A stretch of 64,000 nucleotides of DNA from Callorhinchus milii (taxonomy: Eukaryota): contig NW_024704742.1 of the NCBI RefSeq assembly GCF_018977255.1, positions 56,484,001 to 56,548,000 on the forward strand, in the 5' to 3' direction. Position 1 is the stretch's first letter, and the number at the start of each line of letters is the position of its first letter. The notes beneath the pieces are model-generated. The model made no database searches, was not told the DNA's origin, and was given only the letters and a program-made list of their open reading frames with translations. Shown here piece by piece: positions 9,380 to 57,130 of this stretch. Made by a program: the position numbers and the translations under genes.

Positions 9380-10225
9380 CTAAAGAATAAGAATATACTG
9401 TTAATTCCTACAATGATTGATTGCACTTTTAAGGTCTTCAACAACAAATTTCAACCAGATTCCCTTTCACAAAGTTACATGTCTCAAGGTATTTCACAAA
9501 GAGGTAGCACGTGAGTCCAAACAGGTTGGGAAATGGGGGAGTAGGAGAGGGGACCAAAGAGCAGTCAAACAGATAGGGATTTAGAAAAAGAGTTTATAGG
9601 TGGAGAGGGAGGGTGCAAAGTGAAAGGCTTTAGGGAGATATTTTCAGGTTTCAGTTGACAGAATGGAAGGGGCAGGGGAATTTGACCGCAGGAGATCACA
9701 GAGTGGTACAAGGTTGTACAAATATATCATAAAGTTATATCAAGTATCCTAAAGTCAATCTGCTGAGGATTAGGGAGCCCGTGTAACCAGGCAGAGAAGA
9801 GGATATGGGCTGATTAATAATATATATGATTAATAAAGCAAGAAACATAAAATATGGAAGAGTCTGTTCCAATTTTTCAAATCCACAGCTATAATCAGCC
9901 TTTACCCAATTGCTACCGTTCACTTACATCACTGTCTAGATCGGGCAGGTTAAATAGCTGCAACTGAACTAACTTCCCCATCCAACTTAAAGAGCAATTT
10001 GGAGCTCACAGTAAATCTTCCCCGAGCAAGAATTTAGATGAAGCTGTTGAGTCAACTCAGCTTCAAAAGACAAAACAAATATTACCACTTATGAAGCTGA
10101 TAAACATTTTAACTTTTTATCCGCCGAGTACCAAAAATAAAGTCAATAATCCTTGTATTTGATTTAGTTCTTTATCCCATTGTCACAAAACCTCAAAGCA
10201 CATCACAGGATATACTCAAAAGTGG

Positions 10226-10731
10226 AACAAAAACAGAAGTTGCTGGGAACACTCAGCAGATCAGGCAGCATCTATGGAGAAAGAAAAGTGAGTCAACGTT
10301 TCAAGTCCACGGTCCTTCATCAGACCTGGGGCATGTTGGGAGGCTTTTAAGGGCTAACAGAGAGGGGGGAGGCAGGGCAAGGAAGACAAAGGAGAAAATT
10401 GGGGAGAGGTAGATGACAGGGGATGACAGGTTAAAGAGGTGTTAATAATGCAAAACAAAAGGGGAGGGGAAATTGCAACAAAATAGGCAGACCAGAGAGA
10501 GAAAAGGTGTGTCGGGGCACAAGATGATGTGGTAATGGTCACAGAAGAGGGGGAGGGGGAAGGTGAGCTGTTATGGTCTGAAATTATTGAAATCAATATT
10601 GAGGCCAGAGGGCTGTAAGGTACCAAGAAATTAAATGAGGTGCTGTTCCTCGAGCTTGCGCTGTGGCTCATTGGAAAAGCATAGGAGACCATGGATGGAG
10701 AGGTCAGAGTGAGAGGGAGAATTGAAATGGC
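10226..10731 (-). mobile_element. Penelope-like element 3' remnant: GIY-YIG endonuclease C-terminus plus terminal repeat with degenerate hammerhead
   Basis: 10729..10571 translates HFNSPSHSDLSIHGLLCFSNEPQRKLEEQHLI*FLGTLQPSGLNIDFNNFRP*, typical PLE C-terminus (L-TLQP-GLN); downstream CTGATGA...GAAACGTT at 10323..10295. Confidence 0.85.
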
Positions 10732-12483: not shown

Positions 12484-12872
12484 CTGAGGAACTCAAAAGA
12501 CAACGTTCCGTTATGTACATAAAATAATAGTTATTCCACAATGACAAATCACTGAGATAAAACTGCAGAATGTTACAGCAGTTGGTGGTAGCGCCTTGGT
12601 TTCATTCTGGCTGAGATTCGATAACTCCGCAAACTTCACAACTTGGGGATTTCTCAGCCACTTATAGGGTCCTCGACTCACTGGATTTATAATGCACGAT
12701 GTGCCATCAGAGCAACCTTACAAACCAATTTGAATCCACTGGTATATGTTTATTTTAAGCGACATACATCAACAAGGAACACATGCTCTATTTTAAAACC
12801 AAGTGACCACCATCACGAAGGTAGTATCATTTGGAAGTGGAGTCTGACCTACTGCAGTACAGTGAGGTCCTT

Positions 12873-13655
12873 GTGTTTGTGTGAGTGTGAGTGTGAGAGT
12901 ATGTGTGTGTGAATAAGTGTGAATGTGTATGAGTGTGTGTGTATGTATGTATGTATGTGTGTGTGTGTGTGTGTGTATGAGTGAGTGTGTGAATGTGTGT
13001 GTGTATGTAAGTGTGTGTATGAGTGAGTGTGAATGTGTGTGAGTGTGTGTATGAGTGTGAGTGTGTGTGCATGAGTGTGAGTGTATGTATGAGTGTGTGT
13101 GTGTGTGTATGAGTGAGTGTGTGAGTGTATGTATGAGTGTAAGTATTAGTGTGTGTGTATATGTGAGTGTGTGTGTGAGTGTGTATGTATATGAGTGTGT
13201 GTATGTATGTGTGTATGAGTGTGAGTGTGTATGAGTGTGTATATGTGAGTGAGTGTGTGTATGTGTGTGTGAGTATGTATGTGTGTGTGTGTGAGTGTGT
13301 GTGTATGTGAGTGAGTGTGTATGCGTGTGTGTATATGTGAGTGTGTACGGGTGTGTATATGTGAGTGAGTGTGTGTGTGTACGTGAGTGAGTGTGTATGT
13401 GAGTGAGTGAGTGAGTGCGTATGTGAGTATGTGTGTATATATGTGAGTGAGTGAGTGAGTGAGTGAGTGTGTGAGTGAGTGAGTGTGTGAGTGAGTGAGT
13501 GGGTATGTGAGTGAGTGAGTGAGTGAGAGTGAGTGAGAGTGAGTGAGTGAGTGAGTGTGTGAGTGTGTGAGTGAGTGAGTGTGTGAGTGAGTGAGTGTGT
13601 GAGTGAGTGAGTGAGTGAGTGAGTGAGTAAGTGAGTGAGTGAGTGAGTGGGTGAG
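12873..13655. repeat. Compound GT-rich microsatellite ((GT)n, (GTAT)n, (GAGT)n) in CYP4V2 intron 1
   Basis: About 780 nt of almost pure G/T/A di- and tetranucleotide units, grading from GT/GTAT to GAGT. Confidence 0.97.
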
Positions 13656-14260
13656 TGGTGCCTGTGCCCCTGGAGCAGGTGAAGCTGCCCTTACCCTCTC
13701 CCTTGGGTTTGAAGAGCAGCGCGTTGCCCAGGATGGGGTAGGTCGGGCTGACTCCCGGGATCGGCTTCAGTCGGTGCCATTTGTGCACATAGTCACCGAC
13801 CGAGTAGAGAGTGATGAGGAGCAGCAGAGCGAGGAGCACAGCGCCGAGAGACGTCCCGACCAGCAGCCAGTTACCGCTGGCCATCAAAGCTGCTTGTGGG
13901 CCAGTGCCGACACACACACACACACACATACACACACAACACCCAGCGCTGGAGGGTGGGGTCGGGGCCAGTGATCCCTCCCCAGTCCCCTCCTCTCCCA
14001 GTTATGGCAATCAGCTCCAGTCCTTGAAACCGGTTCGCAACTAAACCGCTTCGGGTTAAACTTCCCGCACTACTCGGCTTCAGGGCTCCCCCCAGGGGAG
14101 GGGAGGCGGTGCCGCCGGCGCAACTTTGCGGATGCGATGAAGCAAAGTTGGTCGTTTTCAATCCGCGGCCGTTTGCGGGACATCGCTGTGCGCCCACAAA
14201 TATACAGTCACTTCACTTTACGGTGTGTTCTGTGAAGCGCTTTGGGACGGCCTCCCGACG
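13650..14260 (-). promoter_or_regulatory. CpG-rich island / probable CYP4V2 promoter and 5' UTR
   Basis: Local excess of CpG and GC relative to the AT-rich window; GC-box-like ggggaggcgg near 14100; spans exon 1. Confidence 0.55.
13695..13884 (-). CDS. CYP4V2: Cytochrome P450 4V2, coding exon 1 (N-terminal membrane anchor)
   Basis: ATG at 13884; MASGNWLLVGTSLGAVLLALLLLITLYSVGDYVHKWHRLKPIPGVSPTYPILGNALLFKPKGE (hydrophobic anchor plus Pro-rich hinge); donor G|gtaagg, phase 1; CpG-rich context. Confidence 0.92.
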
Positions 14261-25391: not shown

Positions 25392-26084
25392 TAATAATAA
25401 TAATAACAATAATAATAATAATCCTTGCATTTGACATAGCATGGAATCCTGTAGCTCAGTGATTAGAGCACTCGCTTTGCAAGCGAGAGACCTGAGTTCA
25501 ATTCCAGGCAGTGCGAAACCTTGGGCAGGTTTCCTTACTCCACACGCCTAATAATAATCCCTCCAAAACCAAAAACAATAATAAATTGGTCATTTTCAAT
25601 CTACGACTGTTTGTGGGACATTGCTGTGTGCAATTGGCTGCCGCGTTTGCCCACAAATATACAGTCAATTCACTTTACAGTGTGTTCTGTGAAGCGTTTT
25701 GGGACGTCCTCCCGACGTGAAAAGCGCTATATCAAATGCAAGGATTATTATTATTATTATAGCGCCTTATCACGTCCTCAAGACATATGCAGTGCTTAAC
25801 TGCATATACCGTAAAGTTAATTGACTGTATAATTTGTGGGCGAAACATGGCAGCCCAATTGCACACAGGAGTGTCCCACAAACAGTCGTGGATTGAGTGT
25901 CCAATTTACTTATTTTTTTCGAAGCCCAGACAGGTTATCCGCCAATCAACTAACAATTGGGTTCCTACTTATTGCTAGGTAAACAGAGGCATGTGGAGTA
26001 AGCAACTTGCCCAAGGTTTTGCCCTGCCGGGAATCAAACCCAGGTCTCTCGCTTGCGAGGCTAGTGAACCACTGAGCTACAGGA
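25392..26084 (-). mobile_element. tRNA-derived SINE, long variant, split by the previous element
   Basis: Head at 26084-26020, body to 25761, tail resumes at 25440-25392. Confidence 0.85.
25443..25760 (+). mobile_element. Full-length tRNA-Ala-derived SINE nested in an antisense SINE
   Basis: A/B boxes, anticodon arm CTCGC-TTTGCAA-GCGAG (TGC), L2-like tail, (TTA)n. Confidence 0.92.
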
Positions 26085-35997: not shown

Positions 35998-36190
35998 TTA
36001 ATAAATAATAATAATAATCCTTGCATTTGATATAGCGCTTTTCACGTCTTCCAGACGTCTCAAAGCGCTTCACAGAATATGCTATAAAGTGAATTGACTA
36101 TATTTGTGGGCAAAAAGCAGCAGCCAATTGCGCACAGCAGTGTCTCACAAACAGTCGTGGATTGAAAATGACCAATTTATTATTGTTTTT
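35998..36190 (-). mobile_element. 5'-truncated tRNA-family SINE
   Basis: Body and tail matching 25585-25760. Confidence 0.88.
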
Positions 36191-46812: not shown

Positions 46813-49390
46813 ATCAACAACAAGTTGGATTTATATAGCGCCCTCCATGCCGGACAGCGTCTCAGAGCGCTTCACAGTAACGGATCCCGGGGCCGAGCCA
46901 GGGGGAGGGGGAGGAAGGTGACCAAAGGCGCGGTCGAAAAGAAAGGACTTCAGCAGAGACCTGAAAATGGGAAGGGAGGGAGCGAGGCAAAAGGAGTGAG
47001 AAAGGCAGTTCCAGAGCCTCAGGGCATAGCGGCTGAAGGCACAGCCGCCGAGGGTGGAGCGGAGGACTCGGGGGATGAGGAGGAGGCCAGACCCGGAGGA
47101 ACGAAGGCAACGGGTACTTGTTCTGAGGAGAGATGAGGTCAGAGAGGTAGGGGGTGCAGAGGGGTGCAGGGACCTGAATACAAGGGTGAGGATCTTGAAA
47201 TCGATCCTCTCTGGGACAGGCAGCCAGTGCAGTCTGGCAAGGACTGGGGTGATCGGGGAACGGAGTTTCGTGCGGGTGAGAATGTGGGCTGCAGAGTTTT
47301 GAATGATTTGGATTTTATGGATGGTTGTGGATGGGAGACCAGCGAGGAGGGCATTGGAGTAGTCCAGCCAAGAGGTGACAAAGGCATGGACCAGGGTTTC
47401 AGCAGCTTTTGGGGAGAGGTATTATCAGAGACCGGTGATGCGTCGGAGGTGGTAGAAGGGACCGGATGTGGGGGAGGAAGGATATTTGGGGGTTGAACCT
47501 GACGCCAAGGTTGCATACGGGTTCGGAGAGGTTTAGGGGGAGGTCAGGTAGGTGGAGGAGGTGAGAGCCGTGAGATTTTAGACATTGACGAGAGCCAAAG
47601 AATATGGCTTCTGTCTTGTCAACGTTCAGCTGAAGGAAGTTTGCACTCATCCAGCCCCTGAGATCTGACAGGCAGGCTGACAGAACATCAGGGGTAGCAA
47701 AGAGAGGTGGAAAAATAGAGTTGGGTGTCATCTGCATACATGTGGAAATGTATTCCATGTCTGCGGATGATATCCTCAAGAGGGAGCATGTAGATCAGAA
47801 AGAGGAGGGGGCCAAGGATGGATCCTTGGGGTACCCCGCAGGTGACGGGGTGAGAGAGAGAAGAGAAGCCATCTGTGCAGATGTACCGTAGGTAGGACTC
47901 GAACCAGGCGAGTGCGGTCCCATTAAGGTGTATGACGGAGGAAAGGCGATGGAGGAGGATGACGTGATCGACTGTGTCGAATGCGGCAGAGAGGTCCAGG
48001 AGGACAAGGAGGCAGAAGGAGCCCTGGTCACAGATAGAGAGGATGTCGTTTGTGACTGTCACAATTGCAGTCTCTGTACTGTGCACAGGGCGGAACCTGG
48101 ACTGGAGAGGTTCGAAGGGACTGATCCGGAGGAGAGGGATTGGTTGATGATGTCAGCCAGTAGTGGGTGGAGGAGGGGGAGCTGGGTGACCAGTAAGTTG
48201 GTGGGGAGGGTGTCGAGGCAGCAGGTGGTGGGTTTCATGGAGGTGATGTTGGGTGAGAGGGAGGAGGGAGAGATGGGAGGAAGGAATGTACAAAGGGAGC
48301 GGTCATAGGAGCAGATGATGATGAAGGTGAAGGGGACAGAGAGGGCTTGGTGGTGGGTGACAAGAGGCAGGTGGATGAGACTGCCTGGCGGATGTTAAGT
48401 ATTTTAGAAGAAAAGAAGTCCATGACCTCCTCGCACTTGGCATTTGATATGAAGGTTGAGGAGGCCTGAGGGGGGGCACGGAGGAGGTAGTGGGTGGTGG
48501 AAAAAAGGATTTTTGGGTTGTGTTTAGCCTCCAAGATGATATTGGAGTAGAAGGCCATTTTTACACGAGTCAAAGAACGGCGGTAGCTGTGGAGATGCTC
48601 GAGCCACAGTTGGTGGTGAACTGTCAGGCCAGTTTTCCGCCATCTGCGCTCGAGCAGACGGGTTTGGATTTTTTGGCGGCTGAGATTGTTGTTGTACCAG
48701 GGGGATCGGGTGGGTTTGGAGATGGCCCTAGATTTCAGGGGCCTCGAGGGAGTTGAAGGTGGAGGAGAGGCGATCATGGAGCAGCTGGACGGCTGCTTCA
48801 GGATCTCCACGGGTAGAGGGCCACAGGGATAGGATATTTGATGATGAGACGGTCTTTGTGAGGGTCTCAGGGGGTAGCCTTTTCCAAGGGTGGTAGAGGA
48901 TAGTTGAGGGCTTGGTGGAGGAAAGAGGGATGTGAGAGGAGAAGGAGATGAAAAAGTGGTCCGAGATGGCTTTGTCCACTATGCTGAGGTCGGAAATGTC
49001 AAGGCCATGGGTGATGACGAGGTCAAGTGCATGACCATGGTTGTGGATGGGTGTGTTTATATGGAGGGTAAGGTTTAGGGAGGAGAGGAGGGCAGTGAAA
49101 TCGGCAGAAGTGGTGCAAGGGGAGTTTAGGTGGAGGTTGAAATCGCCCATTATGAGTAGGCGCTCAGAGCAGAGGGACAGGGAAGAGAGGAGGGTAGAGA
49201 TGTCTGTGTGGAAGGAGGCAGAGGGCTTGGGGGGGCGGTAGACAAGGAGGATTTTCAAAGGGAGAGAGGGGTGAAAGAGGGTGGGGTGCTCGAAGGAGGG
49301 GAATCAGCCAGAGGAGTAGGGGGTGAGACCAAGGGAGGCTTTGGAAATGAGGGCCACCCTGCCGCCATGTTGGTTGGTGTAATGGGACAA
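46813..49390 (-). mobile_element. L2-clade LINE, 5'-truncated and frameshifted ORF2 (APE endonuclease plus RT) with (TTG)n tail
   Basis: VYRPP, GDFNLH, HGHALDLVIT, SDHF (endonuclease); HSTETA, LDLSAAFDTVDH, GVPQGSILGPLLF, YADDTQL (RT); 3' stem-loop tail. Confidence 0.95.
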
Positions 49391-52492: not shown

Positions 52493-52815
52493 GGAGTCCT
52501 GTAGCTCAGTGGTTAGAGCAATCGCCTGGCAAGCGAGAGACCTGGGTTCAATTCACAGCAGGGCGAAACCTTGGGCAAGTTTCCTTACTCCGCACGCCCA
52601 ATAATAAACCCTAAAGAAAAAAAACCCAATAATAAATTGGTCACTTCAATCCACGACTGTTTGTGGGACATTGCTGTGTGCAATTGGCTGCTGCATTTCG
52701 CCCACAAAATATACAGTCGATTCACTTTACAGTCTATTCTGTCAAGCGCTTTGAGACATCTAGAAGACGTGAAAAGCGCTATATCAAATGCAAGGATTAT
52801 TATTATTATTATTAT
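52493..52815 (+). mobile_element. Full-length tRNA-derived SINE
   Basis: Same family as 28946-29258. Confidence 0.92.
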
Positions 52816-53279
52816 AGGTTGAGCACACATGCTCAGATGCATTGCAGAAGCTTCTGGTCTATTGGAAGGCTGTGTCACATCCTCCTGCCTTACTCTGTCA
52901 CAGGAGAGGGGGAGGTGGGGCGGGAAGCCATGGCTTGACTCTCCATTAGACCGAAAGCTTCTGTGATGCATCTGAGCAAGCGCTCACACCAGCCTCAGGA
53001 TAGGGCGGGAAGCCTCTGCGATGCAAGACGCCATTTTATAGGACTAGTTACCCAATTAAGTTTTATATTGTAAGTACTTGCATGCATTTCTAAAATGCGA
53101 CTAGTCATATATTAAATGCAGTGATAAGTAAATCGGAGTCCATTATTAACACTTTGCATGGGAAGCAGCCAATATATTGACAACATGGCTACTTAAGTGG
53201 TCATGACTAGTTAAGCCAATGTCTTATTATTAGAAGTTTACTGTAGATAAAGGGAAAAGTAATAATAATAATCATTGCA

Positions 53280-53414
53280 AAACGCAAAATACTGCAGAAG
53301 CTGGAAAACAGAAACAAAAACAGAAGTCGCTGGGAACACTCAGCAGGTCAGGCAGCATCTATGGAGAAAGGAAAGTGAGTCAACGTTTCGGGTCCACGAC
53401 CCTTCATCAGAACC
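53280..53414 (-). mobile_element. Solo 135-nt Penelope terminal-repeat unit inserted in a SINE tail
   Basis: Homologous to 10226-10325; flanked by ATAATAATC(A/T)TTGCA duplication at 53265-53279 and 53415-53429. Confidence 0.85.
53378..53414 (-). ncRNA. Minimal type I hammerhead ribozyme (PLE-associated)
   Basis: GGUU-CUGAUGA-A-GGGUC(GUG)GACCC-GAAA-CGUU-GACU: intact catalytic core, perfect 5-bp stem II, palindromic AACGUU stem III, short stem I. Confidence 0.75.
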
Positions 53415-54730
53415 ATAATAATCTTTGCATTTGATATAGTGCTTTTCACGTCTTCTAGACACCTCAAAGCGCTTTAGAGAATATACTGTAATGTGAATTG
53501 ACTGTATATTTGTGGGCAAAACCAGGCAGCCAGTTGCGCACAGCAGTGTCCCACAAACAGTTGTGGATTGAATGAACAAATTATTATTTTTTTTCTTGAG
53601 GGATTATTATCAGGAGTGTGGAGTCAGGAAATTTGCCCTGGGAATCGAACCCAGCAGGGCACAAGTGAACCTCTGTCTCTTGCTTGCAAGGCAAGTGCTC
53701 TAAATACTGAGCTACAGGAATCCATCTCAAAACGCTTCACAGGATTTACTGCTAAGTGCAATGACCGTGCACCCTGTAGTTGAACATGGTAGTTAATTTG
53801 TGCACAACAATATCCTCTAAACACCCATGAAATGAATGGCTAATTTTATCTACAGGATTGTTGGCTAGAACACCGGGAGAAACTCCTCTCTGCTTTTGAA
53901 TGATACCATCTAAACAAGTAGATGACATCTTGGATCACACCTCATGTGAAAGAAGATGCCTACGAAAATGTGGCATACCCACAGCAGTGCATTCTGGACT
54001 GCAGTGAGTGTGTCAGTTGACTTACAGGTGATAGCACTACCATCTGAGCCAGGCTGACACCTTTAAGAATCAACATAAAGAAACTGATTTACTTACTAAT
54101 AGAAGTAAAAAGACACAAACAAATTTACGGCTTTTTATTTATATTAGAAATGCATTTTATGCTACGTCATCCTCCATTCACCACATTTTTAATAAAATAA
54201 TAATTCTTGCATTTGATATAGCACCTTTCATGTTAGGAAGGCATCTCAAAGCACTCCACAGGATTCACTATAAAGTGTAGTAATTGTATTTTGTAAGCTA
54301 ATTCAGATGTAATTTGTGCACAGCAATATCCATCCAAAACTTGAAGTGAATGACCAATTTTAATAGGGAAATTGGTGACCAGGACACTGGGAGGAAACCC
54401 CTTCTGCTTTTGAGTAGTATCATGGGAACTTTAACATCCTCCTGAACTGGCAGGCATTGCCTCAATTTTAATATCTCAAACGAAGGATGTCACTTCTAGC
54501 AATCGCGTGCACCCCCAGATGTAGGGCTTGAATCAAAATCCTTCTGACTCAGAGGTGAGAGTGCTACCAACTAAGCCAGGCTGATACCTACAGTTAGCGG
54601 TTTAAGCTCTATAAGCAGTCAGTAGTTCAAACTTACCATACTATTCGGTTTTCCCAATCCTTTTGTTTCTCTGATTTGTCCTACTTGCCCTCCTCTATCC
54701 TATGAAGTGGCTTCTTGAACCCACTGGTTA

Positions 54731-56190: not shown

Positions 56191-57130
56191 GACAACAATA
56201 ACAAAATTGCCTTTATATAGATCCTTTCATGTCAGAAGGAAGTCCCAAGGCACTGGACAGTTAAAGGTTTGCACCTGATCTGGGGGTTGGAATCAAGAGG
56301 GGTGGAGAGTAGGGGGATGGGTGGTTGCCCAGTGGCACAGTCAAAGAGGAAGGTCTTGAGATGGGCTGTGGAGGAGGCAAGGAAGAGGGAGAGGTGGATG
56401 GCTTCCAGGATGGAGTTCCAGAGGGTGGAAGCAGAAAAGTCAAAGGCCCGAATGGTTGGGCGAGCAGGGCAGGGGACATGGAGAAGGTGATTGCCTGCCA
56501 AACGGAGAGAGCGACCAGGTTTATATGCTGATAATAGGTTGCAGAGGTAGGGAGGAGCACGAGTGTGGAGGGCTTTATAAGTGAGGACGAGGAATCTAAA
56601 CCCGATCCTCTGAGGGATGGGGTGCCAGTGGAGCTGGGCGAGGATGAGGGTGACTGGTTTACGGAACTGGTCCAGGAGAGAAAACAAGCTGCAGAGTTCT
56701 GAATAATCTGCAACTTGTGGAGGAAAGAGTTGGAGTTCTAGGAGCTGTGGGGGAGGCAACTGGGCAGATGTTAAACAAAAACAGAAGCCACTGGGAACAC
56801 TCAGCAGGTCAGGCAGCATCTATGGAGAAAGGAAAGTGAATCAACATTTTGGGTCCATGACCCTTCGTCAGAACATTCTGACGAACGATTGTGGACCCAA
56901 AACATTGACTCACTTTCCTTTCTCCAGATGCTGCCTAACCTGCTGAGTGTTCCCAATGACTTCTGTTTTTGTTTCAGATTTCCAGCATCTGCAGTATTTT
57001 GCGTTTAGACAGATGTTACTATCTTTGAGACAAAGAAGTCCAGGACCTCTTCACACTTGGCATTGGATGTAAGGATCGAGGATGCTTGAGAGAACGGGTG
57101 GACTGGGTGACGAGTGGTGAAGAAAAGTAC
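56191..57130 (-). mobile_element. Internally deleted L2, interrupted by the Penelope inverted repeat
   Basis: QIIQNSAA...LHWHPIPQRIGF at 56200-56715; 57010-57075 matches the L2 EN-RT linker at 48390-48455. Confidence 0.75.
56773..57006. mobile_element. Inverted pair of Penelope terminal repeats with decayed hammerhead cores
   Basis: Arms of about 100 nt inverted around CA at 56874-56875; CTGACGA cores on both strands; flanked by CAGATGTTA at 56765-56773 and 57010-57018. Confidence 0.85.

Follow-up and report, generated by a model that had tools for sequence, protein, structure and literature searches.

The window analysed here, a stretch of 64,000 nucleotides of the Callorhinchus milii genome, contains at 53280..53414 on the minus strand a short insert that begins with what reads as a hammerhead ribozyme, raising the questions of whether the resemblance is genuine, how such a sequence came to lie there and whether it could cut the RNA of its host. 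Reading the sequence directly, we identified a minimal type I hammerhead motif (min-HHR) at 53378..53414 of the minus strand (53414..53378, GGTTCTGATGAAGGGTCGTGGACCCGAAACGTTGACT), with predicted cleavage after the U at 53382, between 53382 and 53381. Both core boxes, CUGAUGA and GAAA, are present, U17 precedes helix I, and a single extra unpaired A lies between A9 and position 10.1. Helix II (GGGUC/GACCC) comprises 5 bp with a G10.1–C11.1 closing pair and a GUG loop, helix III consists of the palindrome A15.1-C-G-U16.1 without a loop, and helix I is 4 bp long, GACU pairing with GGUU by way of two G–U pairs. The earlier note on this DNA had described a minimal hammerhead with both core boxes, the extra A, the 5-bp helix II, the palindrome and the 4-bp helix I, and this reading bears it out.

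Might a motif of this size resemble a hammerhead by accident? The exact 29-mer of the motif is expected 0 times according to shuffles, and with N7 left free the exact ribozyme occurs in 243 genome copies compared with 0 for the reversed control, the window motif being one of them (row C1:56537379-56537413). The idea that a repeat came to resemble a hammerhead by chance, without ribozyme ancestry, draws on three null results. First, the window has no excess of a loose core-box pattern, which matches 6 times against 3.89 expected, at chance level (31 of 100 shuffles reach 6). Second, a covariance-model search of Rfam, which had been named as a check, came out without a hammerhead: scanning 53000-53700 at E ≤ 10 gave four matches, none to a hammerhead, nor did one appear when gathering thresholds were applied to the whole window. 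The Rfam hammerhead families (Hammerhead_1, Hammerhead_3, HH9, HH10 and Hammerhead_II) share the catalytic core consensus, but their models need helix III to form a hairpin or helix I to be closed, and the min-HHR class is without these. Third, covariation across genomic copies, another check named beforehand, was not above shuffles within the family, with pairing in 89.2% of cells versus 88.8% (73 of 500 shuffles reach it) and a covariation score of 0.145 versus 0.141 (135 of 500 reach it). Copies decay neutrally after insertion, so within-family covariation is unsuitable as a refutation test.

Within the family, both core boxes are in register in 51 of 96 copies, and the extra-A column between A9 and 10.1 is at least 90% conserved across those 96. 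Over 88 distinct alignment rows, the 15.1/16.1 pair is A–U in 85, while the 10.1/11.1 pair is G–C in 63, G–U in 13, A–U in 1, unpaired in 8 and gapped in 3. The window motif departs from the family majority only at the free position N7 and at the opening base of helix I, where it has G and the majority A; its CpG sites, located in helix II, at C11.1–G12 and in helix III, are undecayed. We also found a second amplified lineage (2,383 matches at ≤3 mismatches, at least 100 exact), which has A10.1–U11.1 for G–C, a double change, and A1.1 for G, converting U–G to U–A, with pairing kept. This double change speaks against coincidence, as does the position of the motif, which occupies the known hammerhead position of Penelope-like elements (PLEs), in an element that has a reverse transcriptase (RT) and a GIY-YIG endonuclease. 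So, too, does the presence of all four features that, according to the main text of PMC4209133 (Cervera and De la Pena 2014), its descriptor did not require, namely a base between 9 and 10.1, G10.1–C11.1, a palindromic 15.2–16.2 and a helix I of 4–5 bp. We regard a chance resemblance as scarcely credible.

The min-HHRs set out in that main text share with the window motif the core boxes, the unpaired base between A9 and 10.1, the G10.1–C11.1 pair, the palindrome at 15.2–16.2 and an open 4-bp helix I, and they likewise occur mostly as single motifs in truncated PLE copies, accompanied by close opposite-strand pairs. Helix II differs in length, with 5 bp here, 6 bp in Drosophila and 7–8 bp in the families from Schistosoma. 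The same text reports thousands of min-HHR copies per fish or amphibian genome, and makes no mention of Callorhinchus milii. The prior assignment to a Penelope-type minimal hammerhead is upheld.

The insert is flanked by ATAATAATCATTGCA on the element's 3′ side (53265-53279) and ATAATAATCTTTGCA on its 5′ side (53415-53429), a target-site duplication identical at 14 of 15 bases. Most family copies terminate ...GCGTTTTG, so the first TG of the 3′-side repeat (in element orientation) may be the element's end, in which case the element would reach 53278 and measure 137 nt with a duplication of 13 bp. Thus, of the previously described 135-nt insert with a 15-bp duplication, the retro-insertion and the duplication are real, but only 14 of the 15 bases are identical and the sizes may be 137 nt and 13 bp. 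The target, TGCAA(A/T)GATTATTAT, lies within the (ATT)n tail of a SINE on the minus strand (53430..53721), of which this segment holds a tRNA-like head at 53721-53647 (tRNA model, 31.2 bits), the body and the start of the tail; the tail resumes at about 53245-53264. Of the 18 occurrences of the host-SINE tail motif in the window, 17 are uninterrupted. Two contigs of one sequencing run (X11) lack the insert and pass directly from 53276 to 53425, which is what uninterrupted SINE tails at other places would give. The insert is nested in the SINE tail, as had been noticed, and is therefore younger than that SINE; its proposed recent mobilisation also holds in that the copy is fairly young, with 131 of 135 bases equal to the family majority. 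Across the window, Pfam assigned solely LINE RT/endonuclease domains and no host-gene domain to the 50 longest of 368 open reading frames (ORFs), and a 402-aa ORF at 12796-14001 on the minus strand matches a mix of unrelated proteins. Neither result bears out the label 'FAM149A sense' that the earlier note gave to this strand.

The sequence belongs to an abundant family. A first-look search with 53280..53414 gave 1,862 candidates, and all 40 that were scored are 94–100% identical, comprising the self match at 100% and 39 others at 94–97% across the same span. A genome-wide count (~1 Gb) allowing ≤2 mismatches finds the family's tail motif 6,544 times and the control 0 times. Other copies extend upstream beyond the unit by about 80, 450, 850 or 1,650 nt, with a maximum of ~1,800 nt, and the longer ones hold GIY-YIG and RT remnants ~330–1,650 nt upstream. 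An RT-like fragment from a longer copy has 27 relatives at E ≤ 0.001, the best 61–68% identical and several from cartilaginous fish. Two long relatives pass the Pfam cut-offs for RVT_1 and GIY-YIG, and endonuclease fragments from the loci align to the GIY-YIG regions of those relatives (E = 1e-12 and 3e-13). In five ORF fragments from the loci themselves Pfam detected neither an RT nor a GIY-YIG domain, only a sub-threshold EGF_4 match, so the domain assignment rests on the relatives and the pairwise alignments. By protein search, PLE ORF remnants are frequent in the genome (1,777 first-look candidates, 58 matches).

Three 10-kb walks and one 1.4-kb stretch recovered only 5′-truncated copies, several with inverted partners, and neither a full-length copy nor a 5′ pseudo-LTR; a genome protein search with a 955-aa relative gave no match below residue 171, and 42 downstream flanks of copies had no sequence in common. 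We thus infer where the ribozyme stands relative to the ORF start. In the Poseidon element PAc of Anolis carolinensis (Frangieh et al. 2024, PMC11167929), 26 nt separate the A of the AUG in CUGAUGA from the cut site, the same as here. This family differs from PAc in that the frame opened by this AUG meets a stop after 19 codons and most copies carry ACG at that place, so that its ORF probably begins outside the ribozyme. It differs further in its linker, which has a CX4CX2C motif that PMC8557442 assigns to Neptune/Nematis and not to Penelope/Poseidon.

Judged from its sequence, 53280..53414 very probably arose when the 3′-terminal ~135 nt of an autonomous Penelope-like element's RNA were retro-copied, giving a 5′-truncated 3′ end, or stub, that was dead on arrival. 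It has no ORF and no evident promoter, and its hammerhead is the element's own minimal dimer-type motif, passively copied. The earlier note had favoured a self-standing, non-coding retrozyme-like derivative, a reading that finds no support, the same sequence forming the 3′ end of the longer copies with RT and GIY-YIG remnants.

To characterize how copies begin and end, we sampled 40 tail-bearing copies, identified by an exact 23-nt tail motif in the first 17.7 Mb of one contig, and could score the forward copy in 39. Truncation at the 5′ end is the rule, with 33 of 39 copies beginning at or within the unit: 19 start at −10 to +10 of the ribozyme start, 14 inside the unit and the remaining 6 farther upstream. 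Nearly half of the 5′ ends therefore cluster at one spot, which plain random 5′ truncation does not predict, and this cluster at the 5′ edge of the ribozyme may be an under-described point.

Such a modal length class, with 19 of 39 copies starting ≤10 nt from the first base of the ribozyme, is what might be claimed for a dedicated non-autonomous unit of 135 nt, retrozyme-like, transcribed as such and mobilised in trans by Penelope enzymes. Animal non-LTR retrozymes (Cervera and de la Pena 2020, PMC7229834; Li et al. 2026 preprint), as far as the consulted portions of these sources describe them, share with the unit a type I hammerhead, a weak or palindromic helix III, a small non-coding form and a proposed link to PLEs, and a portion of preprint 10.64898/2026.07.22.740005 argues that they derive from PLE pseudo-LTRs and are often monomeric. 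By those same descriptions, however, retrozymes form head-to-tail tandem repeats and circular RNAs, whereas here the units stand dispersed or in head-to-head pairs and align colinearly with an autonomous element. Tail-to-hammerhead tandem junctions number 0 in the genome, counting a tail followed within 4–40 nt by a ribozyme start as an exact pattern that decayed arrays may escape. Moreover, the 5′ ends outside the cluster are spread across and upstream of the unit, the stub is without an evident promoter, and nothing diagnostic separates short (n = 37) from long (n = 22) copies, the majority base differing only at two positions, both CpG-decay sites near 50% frequency. Taken with these observations, a dedicated retrozyme-like unit is improbable, and we retain the reading of a truncated Penelope copy.

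The 3′ ends and partners of the copies fit this reading. An adjacent head-to-head inverted copy accompanies 20 of the 40 sampled copies, and none is found at 53280..53414 itself. Forward copies end at unit position ~135–137, while 15 of the 20 inverted partners end at unit positions 95–109, without the tail, and none reaches 135. Together with loose ends of diverse flanks at 53312-53316 in contigs of all four sequencing runs compared, these ends delimit a 33-nt tail (unit positions 103–135; 53280..53312, minus strand) between two alternative 3′ ends of the family. Arms within a head-to-head pair are closer to each other (0.894) than arms between pairs (0.867; reached by 0 of 2,000 permutations), suggesting a single-event origin for the pairs, in keeping with the Penelope reading. 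By eye, duplications at other insertions measure 8–15 bp at five loci and 9 bp at the window's second insertion, and at least six other loci adjoin the same SINE tail, in both orientations.

These hallmarks are those of known PLEs, whose insertions are often 5′-truncated and lie next to an inverted copy that is itself 5′-truncated. A variable duplication and an AT-rich or ATT microsatellite target are among the features given in PMC8557442 and PMC11167929, both of which also describe a PLE tail of 30–40 bp at one end only. In PMC11167929, the PAc system prefers ATT, cleaves and extends both strands of its target, and begins reverse transcription at either of two internal sites, the origin of the tail. 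Our family shares with it the ATT-rich target and two alternative 3′ ends ~30–40 nt apart that define the tail, and the extendability of both target strands in PAc is consistent with the head-to-head pairs seen here.

From the anatomy of the family and the published Anolis Poseidon system we infer the following order of steps. The endonuclease would have cut the ATT-rich SINE tail with a stagger of ~13–15 bp. Reverse transcription would then have begun within the element RNA, ~100 nt downstream of the hammerhead; of the two start sites this is the distal one, and its use would explain why the copy carries the 33-nt tail. From there cDNA synthesis would have traversed the ribozyme and stopped at its 5′ boundary.

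Does the motif act on its host? The earlier note had suggested that the insert may place a self-cleavage site in FAM149A intronic RNA, and the corresponding proposal is that the motif is an active ribozyme in a host transcript, cutting intronic RNA after GUU (53382) either alone or in trans with other copies. The near identity of the motif to the family majority and its intact CpG sites count in its favour, as do the palindromic AACGUU, through which two copies could join according to folding prediction (6-mer duplex at −3.5 kcal/mol), and the further family copies within the same window. Yet helix II has decayed in the same-strand window copy at 10291-10327, and in the same-strand arm at 56832-56875 G12 is changed to A. 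The predicted minimum free energy of the monomer (−9.1 kcal/mol) belongs to a competing fold in which part of the core is base-paired, against −4.9 kcal/mol for the ribozyme-competent fold. In the assays given in the main text of PMC4209133, single min-HHRs show no detectable cleavage, and dimers and trimers cleave at a low level; PMC11167929 saw no cleavage when the element protein was left out, nor any RNA-seq reads ending at the Anolis site. Since published tests of single minimal hammerheads detected no cutting, cleavage of the host intron is unlikely, and we consider an active ribozyme here very improbable. A lone copy in a host transcript would be unable to form helix III and is most likely catalytically silent.

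A broader possibility concerns the element. The 5′-end cluster and the head-to-head twins might be non-random outcomes of the working of the Penelope ribonucleoprotein (RNP), with the hammerhead serving mainly as a module for RNA dimerisation and RNP assembly. Element RNAs would start at an initiator-like CCCAGT right at helix I, the palindromic helix III would pair two element RNAs on a dimeric RT-endonuclease, and both target strands would be primed together; the ~135-nt stubs and hairpins, present in their thousands in the genome, would then be by-products and not failed full-length copies. We offer this idea as speculative and, on the sequence evidence, unlikely.

Sequences of this kind have already been described in many animals, so that the catch is correct but ordinary. 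For the host genome, the insert is one of thousands of decaying Penelope stubs and probably inert. It is nonetheless a clean young example, with an intact ribozyme, a tail and a duplication, nested in a datable SINE, and as such has modest value: a cartilaginous-fish genome shows the same insertion signatures as biochemical work has established for an element of a lizard. The 5′-end hotspot at the edge of the ribozyme, if general, could help to place the start of Penelope template RNAs, and it bears on the role of the hammerhead for PLEs, given its dispensability for insertion in vitro.

Direct reading of the minus strand at 53414..53378 gives GGTTCTGATGAAGGGTCGTGGACCCGAAACGTTGACT and confirms the hammerhead motif that the earlier note had proposed, with both core boxes and the helices in place. 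In hammerhead numbering, the 5′ strand of helix I (GGUU) is followed by the first core box (C3-U-G-A-U7-G-A9), one extra A, helix II (GGGUC/GACCC, loop GUG), the second core box (G12-A-A14), a helix III position without a loop (A15.1-C15.2-G16.2-U16.1), U17 and the helix I 3′ strand GACU. Helix I comprises four pairs, two of them G-U, and the predicted cleavage site lies between 53382 and 53381. The exact 29-mer had 0 expected occurrences in shuffles, and the exact ribozyme with N7 left free yielded 243 genome matches, the window locus among them, and none in a reversed control. A loose core-box pattern was not enriched (6 matches vs 3.89 expected, with 31 of 100 shuffles reaching 6), and Rfam hammerhead models gave no match to the insert region at E ≤ 10; at gathering thresholds, only four tRNA-like SINE heads were matched across the whole window. 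The motif shares with the minimal type I hammerheads of Penelope-like elements (PLEs), as described in the cited sections of PMC4209133, a base between 9 and 10.1, G10.1-C11.1, a palindromic 15.2-16.2 and membership in a consensus family, four features that, according to those sections, the search descriptor of Cervera and De la Pena did not impose; a short, open helix I is likewise common to both.

We searched the 991.5-Mb assembly (1,762 contigs) with the 135-nt insert (53280-53414, minus strand), whose unit positions 1-135 run from the ribozyme start to the 3′ end. The genome-wide copy search suggested earlier thus produced 1,862 first-look candidates, and all 40 that were scored were 94-100% identical and ended at one common 3′ boundary; a 23-nt motif taken at the 3′ end had 6,544 genome matches at ≤2 mismatches (control 0). 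Upstream similarity persisted at 13 of the 30 loci examined first, and walking outward revealed copies of about 215, 600, 985 and 1,800 nt, all with the same 3′ end. The 135-nt unit is not the whole element. The upstream part of the longer copies is a coding remnant of a reverse transcriptase (RT) and a GIY-YIG endonuclease, as seen in the family copies L032 (9009-9335, ...FPCQHRRCNTCPF...VVYCSRCGLLYIGETKCRLGDQF) and L065 (7455-7829, ...LFTMDIQSLYTSIPH..., with YIDDCVG in the neighbouring frame). Pfam directly recognised none of 5 ORF fragments from the loci, and the domains were assigned through relatives, of which the RT-like fragment had 27 at E ≤ 0.001 (the best 61-68% identical, several from cartilaginous fishes), of which many carry PF00078 and some PF01541. 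Two long relatives contain RVT_1 and GIY-YIG above Pfam cut-offs, and the endonuclease fragments align to exactly their GIY-YIG regions (E = 1e-12 and 3e-13). Endonuclease-bearing PLEs are defined in the cited sections of PMC8557442 by a GIY-YIG endonuclease placed C-terminal to the RT, and a CX4CX2C linker, as found here, is assigned there to the Neptune and Nematis clades. These colinear copies argue for the Penelope origin suggested earlier for the insert. PLE ORF remnants abound in the genome, with 58 matches from 1,777 first-look candidates, most with stop codons, and a full-length 5′ end, sought among the copies and in the genome, was not recovered. Elsewhere in the window, LINE ORF remnants at 47691-49303 (minus strand; RVT_1 E = 2.9e-21, Exo_endo_phos_2 E = 1.9e-05, below its cut-off) are unrelated to the Penelope family, and a 402-aa open frame at 12796-14001 (minus strand) is without a Pfam domain, its database matches being mixed unrelated proteins that are probably repeat-contaminated.

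The earlier note had also regarded the 135-nt unit as retrozyme-like, which would make it a lineage separate from the longer colinear copies found here. The sameness of short and long copies argues against this: short (n = 37) and long (n = 22) copies share the majority base at all but 2 of 135 positions, and these two, neither diagnostic, are sites of CpG decay where the frequencies lie close to one half. So does the absence of tandem junctions, as the tail (unit positions 103-135, 33 nt) followed by the ribozyme start within 4-40 nt had 0 genome matches, using an exact pattern that decayed arrays could escape. The window copy departs little from the family majority (131 of 135 positions agree) and is therefore fairly young.

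The insert lies between ATAATAATCATTGCA (53265-53279) and ATAATAATCTTTGCA (53415-53429), flanks that are identical at 14 of 15 positions. The 15-bp target-site duplication reported earlier is real, although it may measure 13 bp, with an element of 137 nt, since most family copies end in ...GCGTTTTG. The two duplication copies differ by T vs A at a base where the SINE majority is G; A also occurs there in two other SINE copies of the window, so that one post-insertion substitution suffices for the mismatch. The host SINE has a tRNA-like head at 53721-53647 (minus strand, 31.2 bits) and a tail motif, CTATATCAAATGCAAGGATTATTATTATT, with 18 window matches at ≤3 mismatches. Because the insert sits inside this tail and 17 of the 18 tails are uninterrupted, the insert is nested in the SINE and younger than it, as previously stated. 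The earlier account of the insert is thus partly supported, in its Penelope derivation, duplication and relative age and not in the retrozyme-like unit. Two contigs from X11, one of 4 sequencing runs compared, skip the insert, running from 53276 straight to 53425, as would be expected of uninterrupted SINE tails elsewhere. This tRNA-headed SINE with an (ATT)n tail is very abundant (18 tail motifs in 64 kb, e.g. 25727-25755, 36007-36035 and 52779-52807). Penelope stubs have landed repeatedly in its tail elsewhere in the genome, where it adjoins family copies in either orientation at at least 6 other loci (L007, L008, L022, L072, L074, L079).

We characterized insertion architecture in the first 40 exact tail-motif matches along contig 1, a sample that avoids choosing copies by 5′ extent, and found a scorable forward copy in 39. 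Of these, 19 had a 5′ end no more than 10 nt from the first base of the ribozyme, 14 had one inside the unit (positions 11-110) and 6 had one further upstream. A head-to-head inverted copy stood beside the 5′ end at 20 of the 40 loci (in a first, similarity-ranked set, a partner lay within 20 nt at 7 of 30). Inverted copies ended at unit positions 95-109 in 15 cases and 84-85 in 3, with 2 atypical and none at 135; they therefore lack the last ~33 nt. Arms within a pair were on average 0.894 alike (25 usable of 27 pairs) compared with 0.867 for arms of different pairs, a difference reached by 0 of 2,000 permutations, and one event producing both arms would give this pattern. At L070, L093, L096, L099 and L102, visual inspection showed duplications of 8-15 bp. 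The cited sections of PMC8557442 list as PLE insertion hallmarks high 5′ truncation, a 5′-truncated inverted partner at the 5′ end, a tail of 30-40 bp confined to one end and a microsatellite bias; truncation, inverted partners, one-sided tail and target type here all match. In biochemical assays, Poseidon, a PLE of Anolis carolinensis, prefers ATT, cleaves and extends both target strands, and initiates reverse transcription at two neighbouring internal sites, the distance between which is the tail (PMC11167929). Loose contig ends with diverse flanks cluster at 53312-53316 and 53413-53415 in 4 of 4 runs, and the cluster at the tail-less boundary is an independent trace of that boundary.

Related structures occur elsewhere. 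A second family insertion in the window (56774-57009) is a head-to-head pair with both arms starting at the ribozyme's first bases, composed of a tail-less inverted arm (about 56774-56875, minus strand) and a tailed arm (about 56876-57007, plus strand) and flanked by the 9-bp duplication CAGATGTTA (56765-56773 and 57010-57018). A longer, older copy of the element's 3′ region at 10225-10480 (minus strand) reaches 150 nt or more upstream of the ribozyme and has a tail-less 3′ end at about unit position 105. On a larger scale, L107 (G000:C1:22546650-22548050), a copy of at least 2 kb, keeps its RT/EN frames partly open; ahead of it stands a tail-less inverted copy of its own 3′ end, 745 nt in length and again head-to-head.

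A start at the first ribozyme base in about half of the sampled copies is not what random 5′ truncation predicts. Short copies begin at G2 (GTTCTGA...) after unrelated bases, and long copies read ...CCCC-A-GTTCTGA at this point; in L003 (1455-1503), L005, L016 and others, a pyrimidine-rich tract ending ...CCCAACATGCCCCAG directly precedes TTCTGA. The CCCAGT at the hotspot resembles the initiator consensus, and the hotspot may be a transcription start at the ribozyme's edge, in which case any pseudo-LTR transcript could give a mini-cDNA running from the start to the RT site. The pyrimidine tract with CAG also looks like a 3′ splice site; in Drosophila virilis, an intron end coincides with helix I's 5′ end (cited sections of PMC4209133). 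The hotspot may instead mark an RT stop or strand switch at the ribozyme's edge, or two template RNAs that pair via the palindromic helix III on an enzyme dimer. The hotspot is distinct from the cleavage site, with only 3 of 39 copies starting at positions 28-39.

Conservation was counted over 96 family copies. The exact motif was present in 11, the window copy included; 51 had both core boxes in register, and 34 also kept 5/5 helix II pairs, at least 3/4 helix I pairs and the palindrome. CpG decay accounts for most differences among copies, with examples such as CCGA->CCAA, which destroys G12, and CCGA->CTGA. At N7 the family majority is C and the window copy has T, creating AUG, probably a CpG-type transition. 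Among the 96 copies, paired cells (89.2% vs 88.8% in shuffles, 73 of 500 reaching the observed value) and covariation score (0.145 vs 0.141, 135 of 500) did not rise above shuffled values, and slid registers paired far less (14.6-49.4%). Dead copies of a single master that decay neutrally give covariation counts like these, which therefore neither support nor refute the fold. A second amplified lineage (e.g. L074, L077, L078, L085, L087 and L103; 2,383 matches at ≤3 mismatches, at least 100 of them exact, control 0) carries A10.1-U11.1 for G-C, a double change that preserves pairing, A1.1 for G, turning U-G into U-A, and two loop changes, with the core unchanged. These between-lineage changes lend the fold modest support, from two lineages only.

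Would the motif cut host RNA, as the earlier note had ventured? In folding predictions, the monomer's minimum (−9.1 kcal/mol) is an alternative fold that pairs core GAUG with CGUU, compared with −4.9 for the ribozyme-competent fold, in which helices I and II form, and −3.5 for the AACGUU self-duplex. A single Schistosoma minimal hammerhead showed no detectable cleavage, and dimers and trimers cleaved poorly (cited sections of PMC4209133); the Anolis motif cleaves only with the element protein, is dispensable for insertion in vitro and has no RNA-seq read ends at its cleavage site (PMC11167929). In the window, the motif has only two neighbours on the same strand, both decayed, with helix II broken at 10291-10327 (GGACC/GACTT) and G12 changed to A in the arm at 56832-56875. 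From folding, published assays and these neighbours, we rate cleavage of the host transcript as very improbable, and the motif is probably inactive against host RNA. The insert is a further example of the already known Penelope-derived hammerhead stubs.
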